Below are positions 3,257 through 30,676 of a stretch of 32,000 bases of DNA, in pieces (position 1 is the stretch's first letter; every line of letters starts with the position of its first letter). Source of the stretch: Candidatus Helarchaeota ASGARD archaeon Hel_GB_B (GTDB taxonomy: Archaea; Asgardarchaeota; Lokiarchaeia; Helarchaeales; HEL-GB-B); assembly GCA_005191425.1 (NCBI GenBank), contig SUPR01000006.1, positions 1-32,000 of the forward strand, written 5' to 3'. The position numbers and the translations under genes are program-made. Under the pieces are notes generated by a model. The model was not told the origin of the DNA and ran no database searches. It saw only the letters and a program-made list of their open reading frames with translations.

Positions 3257-3862
3257 TTAAATTTTTGTTAATTCATCTAATTTCTTATTAATTAAGTCTA
3301 TTTTTTTATCGATTTCTGCTATAATTGGTTCTTTTTTTAATTCATTAATCAGGTTATTACAACAGACGAAATTAATAGCAATAGCTTCAACATAATTATA
3401 AGTCTTATTACACGATTTACATTGGAATAGGACTTCATTCTCGAATAATTTTTTTTCATTAATTAGAATAGACTTTTTCTTGATCAAGTTTTTATGAATT
3501 TTATACATTAATTTATCCAAATTAAATTCATATTCGTTATCTGGATAACTACTCACTAATTTATCACTAAAAGTTTTTTGGTTTATAAAGCCAAAAGAAA
3601 CTAATTCATAAATAGCCCGTAATAAGTTAGATGATTTTCCAAATTCGTCCATTAATTGATTCAAATTTTTATTTTCTTCGATTAAAGAGGTCAATATATC
3701 AATTTTTAGGTCAATATCTTCCTGTCTTAATAAAGACATACCGTAATCAATAAGATCAATAAGGTACTGGTTTTTTCCATATTTGTTATTTTTTGATTTT
3801 AAGAACCCACCAATTGATTTTCTTGGTTTTTGAATATTTATTGTAGAAAAATTAAGTTCCAT
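3257..3862 (-). CDS. tfe: transcription factor E (TFE/TFIIE-alpha)-like protein with N-terminal extension
   Basis: Winged-helix-like RAIYELVSFGFI...EYEFNLDKL, then FENEVLFQCKSCNKTYNYVEAIAINFVCCNNL (TFE zinc ribbon) and a C-terminal helix AEIDKKIDLINKKL. SD-like AGGGG upstream. Confidence 0.75.
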   Translation of the reverse strand: MELNFSTINIQKPRKSIGGFLKSKNNKYGKNQYLIDLIDYGMSLLRQEDIDLKIDILTSLIEENKNLNQLMDEFGKSSNLLRAIYELVSFGFINQKTFSDKLVSSYPDNEYEFNLDKLMYKIHKNLIKKKSILINEKKLFENEVLFQCKSCNKTYNYVEAIAINFVCCNNLINELKKEPIIAEIDKKIDLINKKLDELTKI

Positions 3863-4146: not shown

Positions 4147-4773
4147 TTATGAACTATAAAGTTCAGGATTAGTTTCAATTTTTTTAAAAATATATTTAAA
4201 GAGGTCTTTTCTGAATTGTTTTGGGATTAGTTCCAATTTTTCCATTATTATCTGAACTAATTCTTCGATAAGTGGTTTATACGGATAATAATTTATTGAT
4301 TTTAATTTTGTCAATTCGCGCTTGATTATTCTGTTAATGATAGCTCCTTCTAATGATTCTGTGTCCAGCCAAAAAGGTCTAGAATTTTTATCATGTATTC
4401 GGTAAATCATTAGTGCATTTTGTATTCTATTAATGTACCAGTTCAAGCTATTCAATGAAACACCTTTAAACCGTTTAATAAAATCTTTTTTAGACTCATA
4501 TCTATAAAGGCAGTCTTTAGTGGGAGTATGAGAAACAATATAAACTGCTGCTGCAAAGAATCCAGTTTTTTCTTGAGGCCATTCAGGATGAATTGTGTAT
4601 AGGAATCTTGATAATAAATTAAGAGCTTTATAAATTGTTTCTTCATCAAAGTTGCAGCTTCTATAGAAAAAGTTAGCTTCTTTAATATATTGTTTAATAT
4701 ACTCAGTTCTCATTAATTTAAATAACTTTTGTTTTTCTATACTATTTTCTAGTGATTTAAAATTTCTATTCAT
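4147..4773 (-). CDS. cyclin-fold / TFIIB C-terminal-repeat-like protein lacking the TFB zinc ribbon; start revised to ATG 4773
   Basis: EETIYKALNLLSRF...EKTGFFAAAVYIVS...SKKDFIKRFKGVSLNSLNWYINRI resembles a TFB/cyclin repeat. The ORF-track extension 4774-5073 is antisense to the gene at 4916..5407. Confidence 0.55.
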   Translation of the reverse strand: MNRNFKSLENSIEKQKLFKLMRTEYIKQYIKEANFFYRSCNFDEETIYKALNLLSRFLYTIHPEWPQEKTGFFAAAVYIVSHTPTKDCLYRYESKKDFIKRFKGVSLNSLNWYINRIQNALMIYRIHDKNSRPFWLDTESLEGAIINRIIKRELTKLKSINYYPYKPLIEELVQIIMEKLELIPKQFRKDLFKYIFKKIETNPELYSS

Positions 4774-4915
4774 AGTGCTTCCATCCAAAAATTTTTGATA
4801 AATTAAAGAATTATCGAAAAGATATAATATTGATATATTATTTATATCTATTCGAAAACGTTTATAAATATTTTTGATATAAATTTTATATAGAGAAATT
4901 TGTCGGTAAAATATA

Positions 4916-5407
4916 ATGAGTTCATCAAATTCTAATTCGGGAAAAAATAATGAAAATTTAGAGGATGAAATTGAACAGATTGTTAAAGTTTGGAGGGAAA
5001 AAAGAGATAAAATTGAGGATGAAATTATTTCAATAAAAGATTTAGCAAAAGAACTAGGAGAAAGTAAAAGCAAATTATCAAATTTATTAATAGATGTTTT
5101 AAATAAAATTATGAATAAAATAGAAGATAATTATATTTTTAAAGATGAATTAATGGAAATGTTTGGTATAACAAAACGAGATTTTGAAGAAATATTAAAA
5201 AAAGCAGGATATGAAAGCACTGAATCTAAAGTCTATAAAAATATAAAAGTACAACTTTTGCTAAGATTAGATCCAATGGCATTAGATTTGATTGAAGATT
5301 GTATCCCCTACTATGGATCTTCAAAAACTGCTGTTGTTAGACAGATGATCATTGATTTTTATACAAAACATCATGATGAAATTGAGAAAGTAAGAAGAAG
5401 CCATTAA
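4916..5407 (+). CDS. putative DNA-binding protein: two HTH-like segments plus a C-terminal ribbon-helix-helix
   Basis: ISIKDLAKELGESKSKLS and FKDELMEMFGITKRDFEEILKK are HTH-like. KVQLLLRLDPMALDLIE...GSSKTAVVRQMIIDF follows the CopG/RHH pattern. Confidence 0.6.
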   Translation: MSSSNSNSGKNNENLEDEIEQIVKVWREKRDKIEDEIISIKDLAKELGESKSKLSNLLIDVLNKIMNKIEDNYIFKDELMEMFGITKRDFEEILKKAGYESTESKVYKNIKVQLLLRLDPMALDLIEDCIPYYGSSKTAVVRQMIIDFYTKHHDEIEKVRRSH

Positions 5408-7168: not shown

Positions 7169-9328
7169 ATGGTGATAATAATTCGAATATATAAATATTT
7201 TAAAGGAATTTTTCTGATTGTCGGTATAATACTAATGACAATAGGAGTTATATTGGGTGCTAACTTTAAATATAATTTATCTGGAGTAACATTTACACCA
7301 TTTCAAATATCTGCTTCGGAAACAGCGGCATATGGTAATTATGCTGCATATAATCAATCAGGAGTAGTAATTAGAGGAACAATTATTCAACCTAAAATTC
7401 CAGTCTATTCATCGGGAGGATTAAGGCCTGCGGTATTCTTTTTTCACGGGCTTTTTGCAAGAAAAGAATTTCATTATCATTATGCAATTGAGCTTGCTAG
7501 GGCAGGATTTGTAGTAATATGTCCAGATCATGGTGGAATGGGCGATTCTATCGGAACTTTCAAGTTGGGATGGGATATAATTCCATTTGTAATGACAGTA
7601 ATTGACCATTTACCAGCTCTTAACGCGACATATCACCTAAGAATTAATGGGAGCGCAGTAGGGGCTACTGGACATTCGTATGGTGGAATATCAACACTTT
7701 ATGCCGGGCTTTATCGACCATATAATAAGACCACAGGCAGAGGAGTTTCAGCTTGCGCTTCGATTTGGTCATGGTCAAATTTTACTCAGACAATTCAATA
7801 TATGGTATCAAATTATGGTGACCCTCCCTGGCAACTTCTTGAGCTAGTGAATTTACAATATATTCTGGCAGATCCTTATGGCGCTGATAATATGGCTGCA
7901 AATATTGAAGCTCGAAATACCATAGATAAGGTCAATGGGACTTCTGGAAATTATCTACCACCAAATTGGTTGTTAATTACATCTTGGGATGATGGATTTG
8001 TTCTACCCGAATGGCAAATAGAATTAATGGCTAATGCATGTTATGACAATTCCAATCCGTCATTAAGTTCATCTGTATACTATAATTATATTAAAAATAA
8101 CATAACATATGCTAATAATTTTACATGGCAAAAACCTGGTGGGTCATTTAAAAATAGGTCTATGAGGCAAATTTTCTTACCAAGAGATACATATGGATTC
8201 CCAATGGGCCATTTGACTGAAGGCTTTTTAGTACCACCATTAATAATGTTATTAAATTGGTTTGGAAATGCGTTTAACTGGAATGTATCAAATGAAATTT
8301 CAAGAATACAAGCTGAAGAAATTGATTTAAGCAGGACTATTTCATTTTGGCCGGCTCCAATTCAAGGACTAGTAATTCAAATGTATTTAGGACCTATATT
8401 AATAATATTAGGGCTCATTGTTTCGATTTTTCCAATAATTAGCTATTTGGCTAGAGGAAAGCGGTCTGATGATGAGTATCAAATATCACAATTTACATTT
8501 CCAAAAGGTACTTCATTATCTACAAAAGAATCTCTGGCATTTATTGCTATATTTAGTGCAATATATATCGGAATTTCTTTACCTTCATTGTTAATATCTA
8601 GCTATTTTAATATAAAGCTATTAATTCCATATTTGGTAGCAGACTCGCTTGCTTCAAGTTGGCTTATTAAAAGCTTAATTGGAATTGCTATATTAATACC
8701 AATTCTCTGGATTTATTTCAACAAGTATAATCAGAATTTTACTGATATTGGTATTTCGTTTGATAAAAAGAAATTACTATATTCTGCTATTGTGGGTATT
8801 GGATTTCCTCTGATTTTCTTTGGACTATGGGATTTATTGAACCTTTTCACTACATTTCCATTATTAATCCCTATGCCAAGTCCTACAGTCGGATATCTTG
8901 GATTTGCTATATTGCTATTGTTTATATTCATTTCTGCTATTATTGACGAGCTATTTTTAAGAGGATTAATACAAACAAAAATGGAAGCAAAAATACAGGA
9001 AAGTAACAGAATTACTCATAATAAGAGGATTAAAAAATGGATAGCATATTTTATTTCAGTGATTCTAAGTTTAATATTAACTTTAACAGCAACATTGGGT
9101 TCACTTATATTAACAGTAAGTCCAGCTGCTTTCCTAGGCAATATTGATGGTACAAATTTCGCAACCCCAATCTTACTTCTAGGTGTTATTGTTTCATTAG
9201 TCCCATCGATAGTCAATCCATATATCTATCAAAGAACTCGATCTATTTGGGCATGCGTATTCTTTACAACAATCTTCTTAGGTATATTTTTTACTTCTAG
9301 GCTTGGTCTAGGACTGACTACTTTCTAA
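7169..9328 (+). CDS. secreted-type alpha/beta hydrolase fused to a multi-TM, degenerate CPBP (CAAX protease/Abi)-like domain
   Basis: N-terminal TM/signal; FFHGLF, DHGGMGDS, GHSYGG, WDDGFV, GHLTE; about 9-10 hydrophobic segments after ~aa 410, containing IIDELFLRGLIQ and YIYQRTRSIW. Confidence 0.75.
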   Translation: MVIIIRIYKYFKGIFLIVGIILMTIGVILGANFKYNLSGVTFTPFQISASETAAYGNYAAYNQSGVVIRGTIIQPKIPVYSSGGLRPAVFFFHGLFARKEFHYHYAIELARAGFVVICPDHGGMGDSIGTFKLGWDIIPFVMTVIDHLPALNATYHLRINGSAVGATGHSYGGISTLYAGLYRPYNKTTGRGVSACASIWSWSNFTQTIQYMVSNYGDPPWQLLELVNLQYILADPYGADNMAANIEARNTIDKVNGTSGNYLPPNWLLITSWDDGFVLPEWQIELMANACYDNSNPSLSSSVYYNYIKNNITYANNFTWQKPGGSFKNRSMRQIFLPRDTYGFPMGHLTEGFLVPPLIMLLNWFGNAFNWNVSNEISRIQAEEIDLSRTISFWPAPIQGLVIQMYLGPILIILGLIVSIFPIISYLARGKRSDDEYQISQFTFPKGTSLSTKESLAFIAIFSAIYIGISLPSLLISSYFNIKLLIPYLVADSLASSWLIKSLIGIAILIPILWIYFNKYNQNFTDIGISFDKKKLLYSAIVGIGFPLIFFGLWDLLNLFTTFPLLIPMPSPTVGYLGFAILLLFIFISAIIDELFLRGLIQTKMEAKIQESNRITHNKRIKKWIAYFISVILSLILTLTATLGSLILTVSPAAFLGNIDGTNFATPILLLGVIVSLVPSIVNPYIYQRTRSIWACVFFTTIFLGIFFTSRLGLGLTTF

Positions 9329-14601: not shown

Positions 14602-15522
14602 TTATATTTCAGGTGCCCATTCAATTTTCTCAAGGTATTCAATTAAATTTTTAATCATATTTTGATGAAATTCATCATCACTGTATGGTCCAAGGCTATC
14701 TAATAAATTTTTCAAGAATTCTTTGTTTTCTTCATCTCTTTGTTGCATTACAAGTTTATAGTCTAATAACAACGTAAGAGTTTCTTGTAATTCACTTATC
14801 ATTTTCTGAGATTTTTCCAGTTCTTGTTCTAATTTTTTAATTTTGGAATTGAGTTCATTTTCAATTCTTTGACGTTCTAACTTTTTTTCTAATGCTAACT
14901 TAATATGAAGCATTGAATCTTTAGATTTTAGTTTTTGAGTTAATTCGTTTATTGTTTCTTTAAGTAAATTAATCGTAACATCTCTATCATTAAGTTTTTC
15001 TTTTAATTTCTCATTCTCTTCTTTAATTTTATCTAATTCGGTTTTTGTCGATAATATTATCTGGAGTTCATCTTCATTTATTTTGATTTTATCATTGATT
15101 AGTATATCATACAATTTTGGAAGAGTCTCAATATACGACTTTCCAATTTTAGCTAAAACTTCTTTTTCAGTTGTGGTCCTGGCATCGAACCGTTCTAAAG
15201 GTAGTTCTCCTAGCACAATTTTTGCACCTAATGGTAATGTTTTTGTATAATTCTTTTTATCTTCATTTTTGTCCAGTAGTAAAGAAATTGCAAAATTTGG
15301 AGCGATATAATAATTAGCTGTTATTAAACCTGAAAAAAAACTAATTACATTCAGGTTTTTTAATTTTAATGTAATAACATTTGCATCTAATTGTCGCATT
15401 CGGTGTAAACTCCCAATTCTCATTATTTCATCTTCAGTGATTTTCAAATTTTCAGGATATTTATGAATTAAGAAAAAACCTTCTTTATTAGTCCAACCTA
15501 TTAAAATTATTCCTTTAGGCAT
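14602..15522 (-). CDS. longin/uDENN-like N-terminal domain plus a long coiled coil
   Basis: MPKGIILIGWTNKEGFFLIHKYPE (W-x4-G-x6-YP)...VISFFSG...AISLLLDKNED; residues ~150-255 are an E/K/L-rich heptad region. Confidence 0.6.
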   Translation of the reverse strand: MPKGIILIGWTNKEGFFLIHKYPENLKITEDEIMRIGSLHRMRQLDANVITLKLKNLNVISFFSGLITANYYIAPNFAISLLLDKNEDKKNYTKTLPLGAKIVLGELPLERFDARTTTEKEVLAKIGKSYIETLPKLYDILINDKIKINEDELQIILSTKTELDKIKEENEKLKEKLNDRDVTINLLKETINELTQKLKSKDSMLHIKLALEKKLERQRIENELNSKIKKLEQELEKSQKMISELQETLTLLLDYKLVMQQRDEENKEFLKNLLDSLGPYSDDEFHQNMIKNLIEYLEKIEWAPEI

Positions 15523-21572: not shown

Positions 21573-22364
21573 ATGAAATCTAATAAAATAATAACAGGAA
21601 TTCAAGGATTTGATGAGTTGATTGAAGGTGGGCTAAATGAATGCGATTCTATACTGTTAATTGGGGGGCCTGGGACAGGTAAAACAATATTTGGACTTCA
21701 ATATATAGTTAATGGAATAAAATATTATAATGAGGCTGGACTGATTGTGCTATTGAAAAATCAAATAGAAGAAATTCGTTTAAAATTAAATTATTTCGGT
21801 TTAAATTTAGATAAATTAATAAATCGAAATCAACTGAATATACTTGATGTATCACCAATTATTACATTGATGGAAAATGGAAATTATAAAATAAAAATAA
21901 AAAATGAGTCAGATACATTAATTGGTGATAAAGATTTTAATATACGAGAGATAATTTCAAGTATTCACCTTAAAAGGAGAAAAATTGAATTTAAAAGGGT
22001 TTTAATTGATTCTTTAATGCCATTATTACTAAAATATGATGATTCATTTCTTTTTATGACTGAATTTGAATTATTATTAAAATCTTTAAAAAAAGCCAAT
22101 ATGACTTCACTGATTTTAACTGAAAATAGTTTTAATAACGATAATTTAAAAATAGCAACACATTTGGTAGATGGAGTAATAAAACTGACATTATCAAGAT
22201 ATGGAAATACTAAAATTAGATATTTGGACATTATTAAAATGTCGAACTTGGGCCATATCTTAGCTACCAAATTATTTGATATTTCAGAACTAGGTATCAA
22301 AATTTTATCTGATAAAAAGATTTCACTAAATGAATCAATTGAAACACTTGATTTAAAGGTATAA
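21573..22364 (+). CDS. single-domain KaiC/RAD55-like RecA-fold ATPase, apparently degenerate; start revised from 21528 to ATG 21573
   Basis: TGIQGFDELIEGGL, GGPGTGKT (Walker A), RVLIDSL (Walker B), VDGVIKL, RYLDIIKM. Confidence 0.85.
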   Translation: MKSNKIITGIQGFDELIEGGLNECDSILLIGGPGTGKTIFGLQYIVNGIKYYNEAGLIVLLKNQIEEIRLKLNYFGLNLDKLINRNQLNILDVSPIITLMENGNYKIKIKNESDTLIGDKDFNIREIISSIHLKRRKIEFKRVLIDSLMPLLLKYDDSFLFMTEFELLLKSLKKANMTSLILTENSFNNDNLKIATHLVDGVIKLTLSRYGNTKIRYLDIIKMSNLGHILATKLFDISELGIKILSDKKISLNESIETLDLKV

Positions 22365-22375
22365 GTGAGTATAAT

Positions 22376-23350
22376 ATGATCTGCATAGTAATATCATTTT
22401 TTGATAATATAAATGGACCAAGACCTTTATTAAGCATTCCAAATACATTAAATGATATAGATCTAAATAATATAGCTTCATTAATTGACAAAACCTTTGA
22501 GACAGGATTTTTTATTTATGAATTTCCTGAATATAAGACTGCTAATTATTTTTTTGAGATTGAATCCGAATGGGCTCGTGGAAACAAAGAAATGGTACTA
22601 TTAACCATTGTATTTGATTTGAATTTTGATTATAATTCATTGGATTTACAGACTATTATGAATGATTTTATAAATGAATTGTCCAATATTACTAACCTAT
22701 TTAAAGCATTTTATATTTTTGATTTTAATAGAAAAAAGGACAATGAAGTTAAATTTTATTATGAAAAATTGAAGGAACTTATTATAGATTTTAAAGGTTC
22801 TCTTCCAAAAGAAACTCTGGCAGTAAACCAGAATCAAATTAAAATTTTTGTTTTTGGACTTGATAGAGCAGGAAAATCTACTATACTAAATCGAGCGAAA
22901 ACCAATTTATTTGTTAAGACCTCTCCGACCATAAATTTGAATATAATGCACCTTTTATTTGGTAATATTCAACTTGATTGTTTTGATGTGAGTGGTCAAA
23001 AGCGATATCGATATACTTGGCGGAGGTTTATAGTTTCATCCCAGTATTTAGTTTTCGTATTAGATGTTAACAGAGAAGATAGATATGAAGAAGCAAAAAT
23101 TGAATTGTGGAAGGTCTTAAGTTATGAAGAAAGTAAAGGTATTCCGTTACTAATATTAATTAATAAGACAGACTTAAAAAAGAAAATAGACTTGAATTAT
23201 TTTATAAATTTTTTAAATTTGTATAAGATTAAGGACAGAAAATGGCATATTATGTCTACATCTGCATTATATAATCAAGGAATAAAAGAAGCATTTGAAT
23301 ATATAATAAAAGATTTATTGTCTAACCAATTAACAATGTTTTCTATGTGA
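22376..23350 (+). CDS. uDENN/longin-like domain fused to an Arf-like small GTPase
   Basis: N-terminal SFFDNINGPRPLLSIP...FEIESEWARGNKEMVLL. GTPase motifs GLDRAGKST, PTINLN, FDVSGQKRYRYTW, NKTD, TSALYNQGIKEAF. Confidence 0.88.
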   Translation: MICIVISFFDNINGPRPLLSIPNTLNDIDLNNIASLIDKTFETGFFIYEFPEYKTANYFFEIESEWARGNKEMVLLTIVFDLNFDYNSLDLQTIMNDFINELSNITNLFKAFYIFDFNRKKDNEVKFYYEKLKELIIDFKGSLPKETLAVNQNQIKIFVFGLDRAGKSTILNRAKTNLFVKTSPTINLNIMHLLFGNIQLDCFDVSGQKRYRYTWRRFIVSSQYLVFVLDVNREDRYEEAKIELWKVLSYEESKGIPLLILINKTDLKKKIDLNYFINFLNLYKIKDRKWHIMSTSALYNQGIKEAFEYIIKDLLSNQLTMFSM

Positions 23351-23377
23351 AAAAAATTTTAATTTATTTTTAATTTG

Positions 23378-23911
23378 TTATTTTTGAATTTGTGAGATTG
23401 TCATTAATATTTTTTTTCCCAAATTTTTGAATGCTAAATCAATATTTTCCCCTGTTTTAGCTGAAGTTTCTAAAAATTCAATTCTAAGTTCTTGTGCTAA
23501 TTTTTCGCCTTCACTTTTAGTGATCATTCGTTGTTCTGTTAAATCAACTTTATTTCCAACTAATATCATGGGAATTTTATGTCCTACATTTACCATTAAA
23601 CGAGAGAACCACTCTTTTACAGCATCAAAAGTATTTCTACGTGTAATATCATAAACTATTAATGCAGCTTCTGCTTTACCATAAAAACGCTTTGCCATAT
23701 TTTGAAAAAGGTTTTGCCCACCAATATCCCAGATAACAAATGTTAATTCAGTGTCCAGGTCTTCGAATAAATATTCTTTTGCCATAATATTGACGCCCAT
23801 AGTACTTTTATAATCATGAATAAATTTGTGATGGACAAATGAATTGAGAACCGCAGTTTTTCCTACCATATATGACCCAATTATTATTACTTTTTTCTTA
23901 ATTTTAATCAT
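23378..23911 (-). CDS. Rab-like small GTPase without a C-terminal prenylation Cys
   Basis: GSYMVGKT, YKSTMGVN, WDIGGQ, FYGKAEAALIVYDIT, GNKVDL, ETSAKTG. Its start overlaps the upstream stop (ATGA, 23908-23911). Confidence 0.93.
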   Translation of the reverse strand: MIKIKKKVIIIGSYMVGKTAVLNSFVHHKFIHDYKSTMGVNIMAKEYLFEDLDTELTFVIWDIGGQNLFQNMAKRFYGKAEAALIVYDITRRNTFDAVKEWFSRLMVNVGHKIPMILVGNKVDLTEQRMITKSEGEKLAQELRIEFLETSAKTGENIDLAFKNLGKKILMTISQIQK

Positions 23912-24903
23912 TTAAATTCCTCCCTTCTAGAAATCTGGTTTATTGGCCTTAATAACGAATAATATTTGTAAATGGGTTTAATGCTAAGTGAATTTTTGAC
24001 AATATTTGCTTTGCAGTCCAAACATTGGTAGAATTCATTCAATTCTTTAAAATATTTCTTACATTTTAAACAATAATGATAATGTCCTAATCTTTGATAG
24101 TCTACTCCTTCAGTTTCTAATTTAAGATTACATTTCATACAAATCATATCATTTTTTATGAACTCATTTTCAAAATCAATATGTCCACATTTAAAGTGTT
24201 CAATAATATTACCTTCAATTATCGTAGATGAATTACAAATTGGACAAATTTTCGATGTTTTAAGATGACTTGATCCACATGAAGGACAAACAACTAAATT
24301 ATCGACCATATATTTTCCTACTATATTTTGTTTTTCCAATTCTTTTAACAAATCTTCGGCTTTAATAGAATTTCCAGCAATTTGTTCCAACTTAGGATAA
24401 TGGACACCATGTATATAATCATATTGGGGAGTAAAAATCGTAGATGGATTTTTTTCTAGAAATTTGACTACTTTGGAAATTTTATACGCTATAATGGGAC
24501 TTACAGGACAATTATTAATTTCGGATATTTTACTCGCTTTTTCAACTATTTCATTAAATAATTGTGGAATAATTTCGTGAGCTTTATCTAAATTTTGGAT
24601 AATTTTATAAAATTGCTCTTTTAAAATTGGTTTAAAAAATCTTGGTGTTTCATTTTCTTCAAGAATTAACATCAAAAGTAAATTATTTTCCCTGCCGCCA
24701 TAATAACATGCGATATGAAATTCATCTGTAAAAAGGGCAGAGAATCGTTCAGTAGTAATATCACCCATTGTCTGAGAGGTAAAAATAAATAATACTTTTT
24801 CTGTATTAAAAACTTTTTTAATCTCATCATCATCTGGATAAATTTCATCTAGTATTGCTCCTATACTATCGTCCCAATGAATTAAAGCTAGTCCGATTGG
24901 CAT
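23908..24903 (-). CDS. longin/uDENN-like N-terminal domain fused to a multi-zinc-ribbon TackOD1-like domain; start likely ATG 24903
   Basis: MPIGLALIHWDDSIGAILDEIYP at the N-terminus. C-terminal HYPKL...CPSC..CPIC..IEHFKCGH..CMKC..GVDY..CLKC..CLDC (11 Cys). Confidence 0.75.
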   Translation of the reverse strand: MPIGLALIHWDDSIGAILDEIYPDDDEIKKVFNTEKVLFIFTSQTMGDITTERFSALFTDEFHIACYYGGRENNLLLMLILEENETPRFFKPILKEQFYKIIQNLDKAHEIIPQLFNEIVEKASKISEINNCPVSPIIAYKISKVVKFLEKNPSTIFTPQYDYIHGVHYPKLEQIAGNSIKAEDLLKELEKQNIVGKYMVDNLVVCPSCGSSHLKTSKICPICNSSTIIEGNIIEHFKCGHIDFENEFIKNDMICMKCNLKLETEGVDYQRLGHYHYCLKCKKYFKELNEFYQCLDCKANIVKNSLSIKPIYKYYSLLRPINQISRREEFK

Positions 24904-29431: not shown

Positions 29432-30676
29432 TTAGGTTATTAAATTAGCAATCCAAGGGATTAAGATATCATCATTTTTTATATAGAATTTTTCTGTATT
29501 TTTATGTATACTTGCGAAGAAAACTAATTTATTGTTTAAAAAGCGTTTGATTATAGTAAGAATTTTTTGTCTATCCAAATTAATATCAATTGAATCAATA
29601 TTTTGAAATCTTCCATAATAAAAGATCTCGATATTTAAATTTGAGAGAAAATTTATTAAATAATTATAAAGGTCATTACATATTTCGTCATTTTCAGCCC
29701 AATATCCTAGTTTTAAACATGAACTGTCCATTAGTAATATATTATTTGTCCCAATTTTTTCAGCTTGCTCCCTTAATATATTATTTATAACAAATTTAAC
29801 ATCTTTATTAGCTATTTGTAAAATAGCGTGGGAAAAAAGATTGAAGATTGTCATGTCATCAAATATAGAGGTGATATAAAATTTAAAATTGAAATTCTCT
29901 TCTTTAATTAGAAATTTTATTTCATTTTTCATTTTTTCTAATTTTAAATTGATTTCACGATTGTCTTTAATATTAGGGTCCATTTTGTGGAAACAGATGA
30001 TAATATATGGTTCTTCACTCAAATAATTGTAAATTTTTAAAATGTTTTTTAGATATTCAAGGTTTTCTCCAAATCTATTAGATTGTACATCAATTACATA
30101 AATAACTACGTTAGTACCCACAAAAACCCGATGTGGCTGATTTAAATATTGGGTTCGATATTTTTTTTGCCCGCCCAAATCCCATAATTGAATATCACAG
30201 TAATTTATATCAAATTTTTCGCGTTCAATTCCTTTTGTTGGTTTTAATAAATTTAATGCTTTTAAAAATTCAATGTAATTTTTTTCGTATTTATTAAAGA
30301 ATCGATTTCTTATTGCTGTTTTTCCTGCATTATCAAGCCCAAATAAGTTTATTTTTTTAATATTTTTATTATGTTTATTATCTATTTGCGAAATTAGTTT
30401 AGCTATAATCACATATCTCTCAAATTCAAATCGGTCTATATTTAATTCATTTGAAATTCTATCAATATCATCAATTTCAAGTTTTAATAAATCTTTGATT
30501 TTAAAGATATGAAAGTTTTCTTGGAGAATTTGAGCGATATTTGGACTTATTTCTTTAATTTCAATAATAGATTTATTTAAAATATCTTCTTTTGACACTT
30601 TTTCTTGTAAAGAAATTTTGAAAAATGAATTTATTCGTTGAAATAAATCATCTGATTTTAATGTATTTAATACCAA
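29432..30676 (-). CDS. HhH-like domain + Rag/Gtr-like small GTPase + roadblock-like C-terminal domain
   Basis: IIEIKEISPNIAQILQENFHIFKIKDL; GLDNAGKT, KPTKG, WDLGGQ, CFHKMD, ITSIFD; C-terminal INNILREQAEKIGTNNILLMD. Confidence 0.8.
   Translation of the reverse strand: MVLNTLKSDDLFQRINSFFKISLQEKVSKEDILNKSIIEIKEISPNIAQILQENFHIFKIKDLLKLEIDDIDRISNELNIDRFEFERYVIIAKLISQIDNKHNKNIKKINLFGLDNAGKTAIRNRFFNKYEKNYIEFLKALNLLKPTKGIEREKFDINYCDIQLWDLGGQKKYRTQYLNQPHRVFVGTNVVIYVIDVQSNRFGENLEYLKNILKIYNYLSEEPYIIICFHKMDPNIKDNREINLKLEKMKNEIKFLIKEENFNFKFYITSIFDDMTIFNLFSHAILQIANKDVKFVINNILREQAEKIGTNNILLMDSSCLKLGYWAENDEICNDLYNYLINFLSNLNIEIFYYGRFQNIDSIDINLDRQKILTIIKRFLNNKLVFFASIHKNTEKFYIKNDDILIPWIANLIT

Follow-up and report, generated by a model that had tools for sequence, protein, structure and literature searches.

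Two longin fusion proteins and two small GTPase domains encoded by the probable core of a signalling locus conserved in Helarchaeales

The window, that is, the whole 32,000-nucleotide stretch of DNA analysed here, belongs to a Ca. Helarchaeales archaeon and contains a block of four genes arranged as two facing pairs. The features of the block and of one nearby gene are as follows.

21573-22364, forward strand: KaiC-like gene, 263 aa
22376-23350, forward strand: longin-Arf fusion gene, 324 aa
22376-22816, forward strand: Arg-loop longin domain (FLCN/SMCR8/NPRL2-like) with GP at aa 14-15, assigned by AF2 secondary structure and an Atlas structure search
22571-22582, forward strand: W66-A67-R68-G69 in the beta4-beta5 loop, a candidate arginine finger
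22832-23326, forward strand: Arf-like GTPase domain with all of G1-G5 and the switch II Gln
23351-23377, no strand: 27-bp gap separating the two convergent stop codons, nearly all A/T and with runs of T on each strand
23378-23911, reverse strand: Rab-like (RasL-type) small GTPase gene, 177 aa
23908-24903, reverse strand: longin-TackOD1 fusion gene, 331 aa
23962-24477, reverse strand: TackOD1 domain, helix-helix-wing core with five CxxC and one HxxC zinc ligands
24514-24903, reverse strand: W-D-x3-G longin domain, C9orf72-like pattern, no beta4-beta5 arginine hairpin
29432-30676, reverse strand: Rag-like GTPase, 414 aa, PF04670, 4.5 kb from the block

The ORF coordinates agree with the layout given in the initial annotation: the KaiC-like and longin-Arf genes are 11 bp apart, the Rab-like and longin-TackOD1 genes overlap by ATGA at 23908-23911, and the two pairs face each other across the 27-bp gap. 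From its sequence the gap is a possible shared terminator; a sigma-70 promoter/terminator scan, which is ill-suited to archaea, found no bacterial-type terminator in it and stayed at shuffle level. The longer TTG starts offered by the ORF finder (21528 and 24915) were unsupported by homologue alignments, and horizontal insertion of the block was rejected (GC 0.264 versus 0.269). The grouping of the four genes exceeds chance, since neighbours of these kinds are infrequent in the window genome (Rab-like at 1.4% of genes, KaiC at 0.2%, Arg-loop longin at 0.15%) and the linkage recurs after rearrangement.

By sequence, neither N-terminal domain had a significant match in Pfam or the PDB, and the eukaryotic Folliculin, NPR2 and C9orf72 HMMs (PF11704, PF06218, PF15019) matched neither window longin. 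Since their predicted folds match longins, both domains are nevertheless assigned as longins, as had been claimed. A downstream DENN-type region is absent from both proteins, the longins being followed by the Arf-like or the TackOD1 domain.

In longin-Arf, the GTPase domain matches PF00025 (E 5e-43, 147 bits, aa 148-313), with 8oun_A and Arf1/Arl5 as best PDB matches (E about 1e-29). The N-terminal amphipathic helix of the Arf family is absent, and in the AF2 model the longin domain stands in its place. The whole model returned only GTPases in the fold search and its longin was assessed through the Atlas alone, where aa 1-147 matched NPR2, FLCN and SMCR8 models with TM 0.70-0.75. R68 is invariant in all 26 longin-Arf homologues, and its loop sits between strands 53-63 and 71-81 of the AF2 secondary structure. 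An arginine between beta4 and beta5 is regarded as a mark of GAP longins (10.64898/2026.01.05.697756; PMC12290439), and PMC12290439 reports that its combination with GP is confined to GAP longins, TRAPP, adaptin and DENND lacking it. Longin-Arf carries both GAP-type features, the GP placed ahead of beta2 (G14-P15) and the arginine (R68), equivalent by topology and not by direct superposition. The Arg-loop longin family comprises 568 clusters, and longin-Arf itself is present in 70 of the 161 genomes of the class, the majority of them showing no TackOD1.

The TackOD1 domain of the second fusion, the product of the only TackOD1 gene in the window genome, matches PF18551 (E 2.5e-35, 122 bits against a cut-off of 32, aa 143-314) and has pLDDT above 90 in the AF2 model; the fold search, with TackOD1 modelled within the fusion, identified no structural relative for it. 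In the same kind of search the longin (aa 1-132) scored Z 12.1 with a Loki longin, over 126 aligned residues at rmsd 2.9, and Z 11.3 with a GATOR1 chain. It is homologous to the Arg-loop longin but lacks the arginine hairpin, and it carries the motif W10-D11-x3-G15, with GP in most orthologues and GA in the window copy. The C9orf72-type partner longin is defined in PMC12290439 by WD (W33-D34 of C9orf72) plus a GP motif. Since W-D longins are common, with nine in the window genome and the motif found in many Asgard longins, the C9orf72-like motif is not specific. A single-protein scan of genome contigs with longin-TackOD1 gave no match, and the sequences of the family varied too much in alignment to yield a scannable pattern.

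The Rab-like protein matches PF00071 (E 2e-47) with complete G1-G5 motifs, and its best PDB match is Thor-Rab (7ezb, E 5e-35). It lacks the C-terminal cysteine prenylation motif of the Rab family because it has no cysteine at all; since, in addition, Asgard RasL proteins are not sister to Rabs, a true Rab identity was rejected. The proposed eukaryote-like Arf/Rab pair therefore stands as a pair of Arf-like and Rab-like domains, but not as a true Arf and Rab, the one being without the amphipathic helix and the other without the C-terminal cysteine.

Active KaiC-like ATPases are recognised by a Walker A motif, a catalytic EE pair and a KMRG arginine finger. The window protein is a single-domain member (PF06745, E 4e-47) of an Asgard-specific clade (support 98/99), with Walker A intact at aa 31-38. 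Alignment with intact orthologues places LLKN (aa 60-63) at the catalytic EE and KMSN (aa 222-225) at KMRG. Since the EE pair and the arginine are missing, this copy probably has little or no ATPase activity; both are also lost in L052, a close relative, and kept in family f2 and Freyarchaeia. A circadian KaiC was rejected, as the protein lacks the tandem double domain and scores 130 bits against a curated cut-off of 408.

A synteny survey across Asgard genomes, a check suggested in the initial annotation, found longin-Arf, longin-TackOD1 and one orthologous Rab-like gene linked in three Helarchaeales lineages. Since they occur in three orders with different flanks, it is the linkage that is conserved and not the convergent arrangement. 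The first order is that of the window and L052, whose whole-region synteny was excluded as independent evidence because it is a close relative. In family f2, longin-Arf, longin-TackOD1 and Rab follow one another co-directionally in a 12-gene locus with KaiC four genes away; duplication of the triad in place has added another W-D longin there, followed by another Rab and another Arg-longin-Arf. In lineage f3, one to three genes separate the members. Convergence is thus lineage-specific and was rejected as a conserved trait of the module. The module-linked Rabs form one orthologue clade across Helarchaeales (97/93) to which no other Rab-like gene of the window genome belongs, and KaiC of one specific Asgard clade usually accompanies the triad. 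The module was not found in three of the seven Helarchaeales genomes (G001, G002 and G005; 93, 82 and 94% complete). The Rag-like GTPase is the best match in the window genome to the GTPase directly upstream of longin-Arf at two f3 loci and, judged on this similarity, is probably a fifth member that has been kept only loosely.

Outside Helarchaeales, genes for KaiC, Rab-like proteins and TackOD1 lie close together in Freyarchaeia and in several further Asgard groups. In Freyarchaeum, the series KaiC-Rab-longin-TackOD1 lies within 5 kb; in family f30 KaiC faces longin-TackOD1, and in f19 Rab precedes longin-TackOD1 in 3 of 7 loci. The Rabs adjoining TackOD1 in other classes do not form one resolved clade in the tree. 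Thorarchaeia keep longin-TackOD1 with no adjoining GTPase or KaiC, and TackOD1 was found in none of the 149 genomes of two large sister families (f4 and f5). Distant longin-Arf genes have no linked partner. In sister lineages a longin-Arf unit is followed by a second W-D longin in one chain (17 of 17 loci), and the three such proteins scanned also carry PAS and mostly histidine-kinase domains. Such fusions are a clue in favour of the two-longin model proposed below, but since this second longin keeps its own Arg hairpin, it is another subtype.

In its larger form the locus has up to 12 genes, of which the window keeps a reduced core, and it is best read as a signalling locus conserved in Helarchaeales. 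The recurrence across Helarchaeales lineages bears out the idea of one module joining KaiC and TackOD1 parts to an Arf-like/Rab-like pair, and we consider it likely that the module genes are functionally linked.

It is less likely than the two-longin GAP model set out below, though a serious alternative, that the genes share a pathway or regulon as two separate units with no dedicated longin heterodimer. Longin-Arf would then be a self-contained switch whose longin serves its own Arf domain as a GAP, in cis, as a homodimer or as a monomer, while longin-TackOD1 would regulate the Rab-like GTPase or be its effector. Longin-Arf is widespread without longin-TackOD1, 48 of the 150 best Arg-longin matches carry a fused Arf-like domain, some longin GAPs for Arfs are monomeric (10.64898/2026.01.05.697756), a Loki longin crystallised alone as a dimer (8yqg), and Rab-TackOD1 adjacency reaches classes without longin-Arf in the loci fetched. 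However, every close Helarchaeales longin-Arf gene on a long enough contig sits in the module locus, the triad was duplicated as a unit, and eukaryotic longin-only GAPs need two longins (10.64898/2026.01.05.697756). We consider it improbable that signalling genes merely cluster loosely without direct coupling, through inherited synteny and abundant GTPase and longin genes, with a decaying KaiC as passenger. The window genome has about 45 small GTPases, G005 has GTPase/two-component clusters without the module, KaiC is the fastest-diverging of the four genes (48% versus 62-77%), and only about three independent lineages within the order bear on the question. However, the same orthologues stay linked while order and flanks change, only 4 of the 45 GTPases adjoin another GTPase, the links recur in other classes, and none of 79 unrelated KaiC loci, a weak and mostly non-Asgard control, lies within 6 kb of TackOD1 or of a Rab-like gene. 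Similarly improbable is a GEF platform of TRAPP, Mon1-Ccz1 or DENN type loading the Rab-like GTPase, possibly under Arf-like control as in an Arf-to-Rab cascade: GEFs are the majority of longin dimers (PMC10933270) and Mon1, DENND1 and TRAPP longins match the longin-TackOD1 fold (Z 8-10), but the top fold matches of the two longins are GAP-complex longins and the GP and invariant beta4-beta5 arginine are those reported as GAP-specific.

Of the GEF/GAP platform originally suggested, the GAP side is thus favoured by the motifs, which point away from a GEF. Modelled as a heterodimer, the two longins reached a score of 0.57, and the best of three controls 0.00; the result may reflect likeness to solved longin dimers. 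The score mark was reached by 58 of 80 solved and 2 of 110 mismatched pairs, and at 0.60 or below there were only 7 of the 80 solved pairs, plus both mismatched pairs that reached it. Contact agreement between model runs was at least 89% and partner pLDDT at least 85. The pairing proposed for the two longins gains weak support from the score, to which the complementary motifs add, but the partner has GA instead of GP in the window and its W-D motif is unspecific; on balance we lean slightly towards a heterodimer.

For the module we propose that the two longins would pair into a platform like C9orf72-SMCR8, FLCN-FNIP or NPRL2-NPRL3, in which the Arf-fused longin would supply R68 as arginine finger and the TackOD1-fused longin would be the non-catalytic partner. 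The GAP activity of the dimer would be directed at the co-translated Rab-like GTPase, the Arf-like domain or both, and the GTPase state would control the availability of TackOD1 as output, this zinc-ribbon/winged-helix domain probably binding nucleic acid or protein. KaiC would be the upstream hub, active in f2 and Freyarchaeia and probably an ATP-binding scaffold in the window. Since neither GTPase has a membrane anchor, cytoplasmic signalling would be expected rather than vesicle traffic. We place the whole two-longin GAP model at slightly under an even chance. It is a more speculative idea, and rather unlikely, that the locus is a working C9orf72-SMCR8-type GAP with native Arf-like and Rab-like clients, KaiC control and TackOD1 readout. 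It would then be a circuit for Arf-Rab crosstalk in a prokaryote, left over from an ancestral Asgard module of KaiC, Rab and TackOD1.

The native regulators of Asgard Arf-like GTPases are described as unknown (PMC11914678), and PMC12290439 poses the clients of Asgard GP/Arg-finger longins as an open question. Such pairs are hard to match because GTPase genes are seldom in operons with longins (PMC10933270). The locus offers candidate native GTPase-regulator pairs among three matching proteins, all of them small and soluble, and R68A as a single-residue test. If the proposal is true, GAPs made of two longins are older than eukaryotes, and their first connections were to archaeal signalling (KaiC, TackOD1, histidine kinases) and not to membranes. 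Since most of the Asgard families searched yielded no longin-TackOD1, the locus is a model of ancestral logic and not a shown ancestor of the eukaryotic complexes.

All domains of the block are already known. The eukaryotic longin GAP complexes, C9orf72-SMCR8-WDR41 acting on ARF1 and FLCN-FNIP and GATOR1 acting on Rags, likewise have two homologous longins, one with GP and the beta4-beta5 arginine and the other lacking the arginine loop and carrying W-D-x3-G, a motif that many Asgard longins share, and an Arf-like GTPase as part of the system. Unlike them, the module has no cDENN/dDENN and no WDR41 or DEPDC5, its candidate catalytic longin is fused to a GTPase and the partner to TackOD1, its longins are not matched by the family sequence HMMs, and its GAP activity is a prediction. 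The bacterial small GTPase MglA and its roadblock GAP MglB are similar in pairing, within an operon, a small GTPase with a regulator of longin/roadblock fold, dimeric in MglB and predicted to be so here. The roadblock homodimer of MglB moves an arginine of MglA into position, whereas the longin here carries its own candidate arginine finger. Close known kin are the Asgard FLCN/SMCR8-type and NPRL2-like longins, for which the accessible parts of the two papers (PMC12290439; bioRxiv 10.1101/2020.10.19.343400) give no partner longin, client GTPase or neighbourhood and do not mention TackOD1 or KaiC. The Asgard LAMTOR1-like/Rab-like/DENN operon (Liu et al., 10.1101/2020.10.19.343400) is also a conserved operon of a Rab-like GTPase with longin/DENN regulators, but has Roadblock and a full DENN protein proposed as GEF, and is without KaiC, TackOD1 and the Arf fusion. 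We found no paper on the locus, in line with the view that the arrangement is undescribed; the 2017 Makarova KaiC paper, the longin-GAP review and the Liu 2020 supplements may mention it. Archaeal KaiC-like signalling hubs (PMC5847659, PMC4858521) share the single-domain KaiC and inactive-looking KaiC neighbours, but lie in a type IV pili context instead of among small GTPases, and the window KaiC is a degenerate copy. In the response regulators described there, TackOD1 is likewise an output domain, with REC as its input where the present protein has a longin.

All four genes of the block at 21573-24903, a KaiC-like gene and longin-Arf on the forward strand facing a Rab-like gene and longin-TackOD1 on the reverse strand, were recovered as the initial annotation had given them, including the open reading frames, strands, 11-bp and 27-bp gaps and ATGA overlap. 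Pfam matches across the block were to KaiC, Arf, Ras and TackOD1, and the closest homologue of longin-TackOD1 carries the label Ca. Helarchaeota. The G motifs are complete in both the Rab-like and the Arf-like GTPase, and no membrane anchor was found in either. In the window's KaiC, Walker A is kept and the EE pair and KMRG arginine, the catalytic residues of the KaiC family, are gone; both are retained in the orthologues from Freyarchaeia and from f2, another Helarchaeales lineage.

The locus is real and conserved, and is assembled from known parts. The four genes had been proposed to form one module, and in the synteny survey the longin-Arf, longin-TackOD1 and Rab orthologues did stay linked, while order, orientation and flanks varied in f2 and in f3, a further Helarchaeales lineage. 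A close relative (L052) has the entire region in identical order and was left out of the independent linkage evidence. The linked Rabs group together in a single clade (97/93), separate from the other Rab-like genes of the window's genome, where the background is a Rab-like neighbour at 1.4% of genes and a KaiC neighbour at 0.2%. In f2 the block genes lie inside a 12-gene locus (arrowheads give gene direction):

First half: TFIIB > W-D longin (C9orf72-like W-D-x3-G motif) > Rab2 > longin-Arf b > Arf/Rag-like GTPase > KaiC ><
Middle, after KaiC: inactive-looking KaiC-like gene < TackOD1-Lrp <>
End, after TackOD1-Lrp: longin-Zn > longin-Arf a > longin-TackOD1 > Rab >< PAS kinase

This locus holds two copies of a triad of W-D longin, Rab and longin-Arf with an Arg-loop longin (FLCN/SMCR8-type, with a beta4-beta5 arginine). 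In f3, longin-TackOD1 > Rab faces longin-Arf with one to three genes between, and the loci adjoin genes for histidine kinases and receivers. A divergent KaiC lies upstream at one of these loci; the other has none up to the contig end. Among the genes of this genome, the GTPase immediately upstream of longin-Arf in f3 is matched best by the window's Rag-like gene at 29432-30676. Within the order the module is patchy, being present in four of seven genomes and not found in G001, G002 and G005. The last of these has a small-GTPase cluster (L037, G005:C1:448000-467000) with W-D longin > Rab2, a receiver-longin, PAS kinases and two tandem double-domain KaiC genes.

Of 400 Asgard genomes, 107 have TackOD1; no genome has it among the 149 from two large sister families. 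Full-length longin-TackOD1 was found in Thorarchaeia, Freyarchaeia and the families f19 and f30. In Freyarchaeum, a Rab-like gene and a KaiC of the window's clade both lie within 5 kb of it; in f30 such a KaiC and longin-TackOD1 face each other; and at 3/7 f19 loci it comes after a Rab-like gene. In Thorarchaeia it stands alone, retained in most as a single copy, with no adjoining GTPase or KaiC and other longins two to four genes off (L104-L108, L135, L136). Other TackOD1 fusions, which lack a longin, sit immediately 3' of a Rab-like gene in f27, Atabeyarchaeia and Asgardarchaeum (L090, L092, L100, L127-L129), and one is located 5' of such a KaiC. The Rabs near TackOD1 in other classes form no single resolved clade, and the deep link therefore joins gene types rather than proven orthologues. 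TackOD1, to which PMC5847659 assigns no function, is also fused to Lrp/AsnC in Helarchaeales, Freyarchaeia and f19 (L031:519-1634, L064, L094) and elsewhere to a weak Mrr-like nuclease fold, fusions that hint at nucleic acid binding.

The window's KaiC falls within an Asgard clade of 17 members (98/99, with long branches), whose f19 members are followed by a Rab-like gene in 10/14 loci; several inactive-looking KaiC-like genes flank this tandem (L146-L157). Neither TackOD1 nor a Rab-like gene was found within 6 kb at any of 79 unrelated KaiC loci, a weak control as these are mostly non-Asgard. A second KaiC of another clade, with intact motifs (G000:C109:12743-14407), lies directly 5' of the gene for a GTPase that begins with a longin/roadblock-like domain, and Atabeyarchaeum L165 has a similar neighbourhood.

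Both unannotated N-terminal domains proved to be longins by predicted-fold matches. The AF2 model of longin-TackOD1 (pLDDT 91.5) matched a Lokiarchaeal longin (Z 12.1, rmsd 2.9, 126 aligned) and chains of GATOR1 (11.3), FLCN-FNIP2 (11.0) and C9orf72-SMCR8 (10.2), with Z gaps <1 counting as ties. In longin-Arf, the longin shows the five strands typical of the fold and matched models of NPR2, folliculin and SMCR8 (TM 0.70-0.75). Judged by hhalign (94.8%), the two longins are homologous in sequence. Of the two, only the Arf-fused longin has a nine-residue beta4-beta5 hairpin; it carries G14-P15, and its S64-W66-A67-R68-G69 is shared without exception by 26 homologues. R68 sits between strands beta4 and beta5. 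An arginine in this position marks DENN/longin GAPs (bioRxiv 2026.01.05.697756), and GAP longins are defined by GP plus an arginine finger in PMC12290439, which also describes such longins from Asgard archaea. The TackOD1-fused longin lacks the arginine loop and has W10-D11-x3-G15, spaced as in C9orf72 (W33-D34/G38); this motif is only suggestive because it is common to nine longins in this genome.

We propose, as the best model, that the two longins would form a GAP platform for the Rab-like and/or Arf-like GTPase, with KaiC as a putative hub or scaffold and TackOD1 as candidate output. The suggested longin/longin heterodimer scored 0.57 in structure prediction, compared with 0.00 for the highest-scoring of three controls, which lends it weak support. 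The mark was reached by 58/80 solved and 2/110 mismatched pairs, but just 7 of the 80 solved pairs and both mismatches reached it at 0.60 or under. Contact agreement between runs was at least 89%, with partner pLDDT of at least 85; resemblance to longin dimers of known structure may account for the score. A strong rival is that longin-Arf is self-contained and Rab/longin-TackOD1 is a separate unit. Longin-Arf is found in 70/161 genomes of the class, most of which show no TackOD1, its distant copies have no linked partner and the Arg-loop longin family comprises 568 clusters; longin-TackOD1 is therefore not a necessary partner. As to the two-longin platform, in sister lineages the longin-Arf unit opens long proteins in which a second W-D longin comes next in 17/17 loci and, in those examples that were scanned, PAS and kinase domains after that; this second longin is related but retains its own arginine hairpin. 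Such proteins in sister families of the class (L252-L272, P0183, P0197, P0185), common in family f4, reach ~1130 aa and run from Arg-loop longin, Arf-like GTPase and second longin to PAS/GAF and a histidine-kinase-type end. Each is a two-component sensor with a built-in small GTPase.

Other genes in the window were as follows:

3257-3862 and 4147-5073, both reverse strand: two ORFs without Pfam match, of which by eye one resembles a winged helix of TFE type that bears a zinc motif and the second a helical repeat of TFIIB type
7169-9328, forward strand: alpha/beta hydrolase and Rce1-like CAAX-protease membrane domain in one protein
14602-15522, reverse strand: W-type longin with long coiled coil; paralogue on C145; no adjoining GTPase

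All domains of the block and longin-GTPase fusions have been described (PMC10933270, PMC11914678), and a single paper that names TackOD1 was found in the literature covered. Gene order is a poor guide for matching GTPase-longin pairs (PMC10933270), and regulators of Asgard Arfs have yet to be identified according to the literature (PMC11914678). No publication on KaiC with Asgard GTPases was found by title or abstract in the part of the literature covered, and the locus as such is apparently undescribed. By analogy, it would work like the eukaryotic longin GAP complexes without being a member of that group; unlike theirs, the block longins have no DENN part and no family HMM match.
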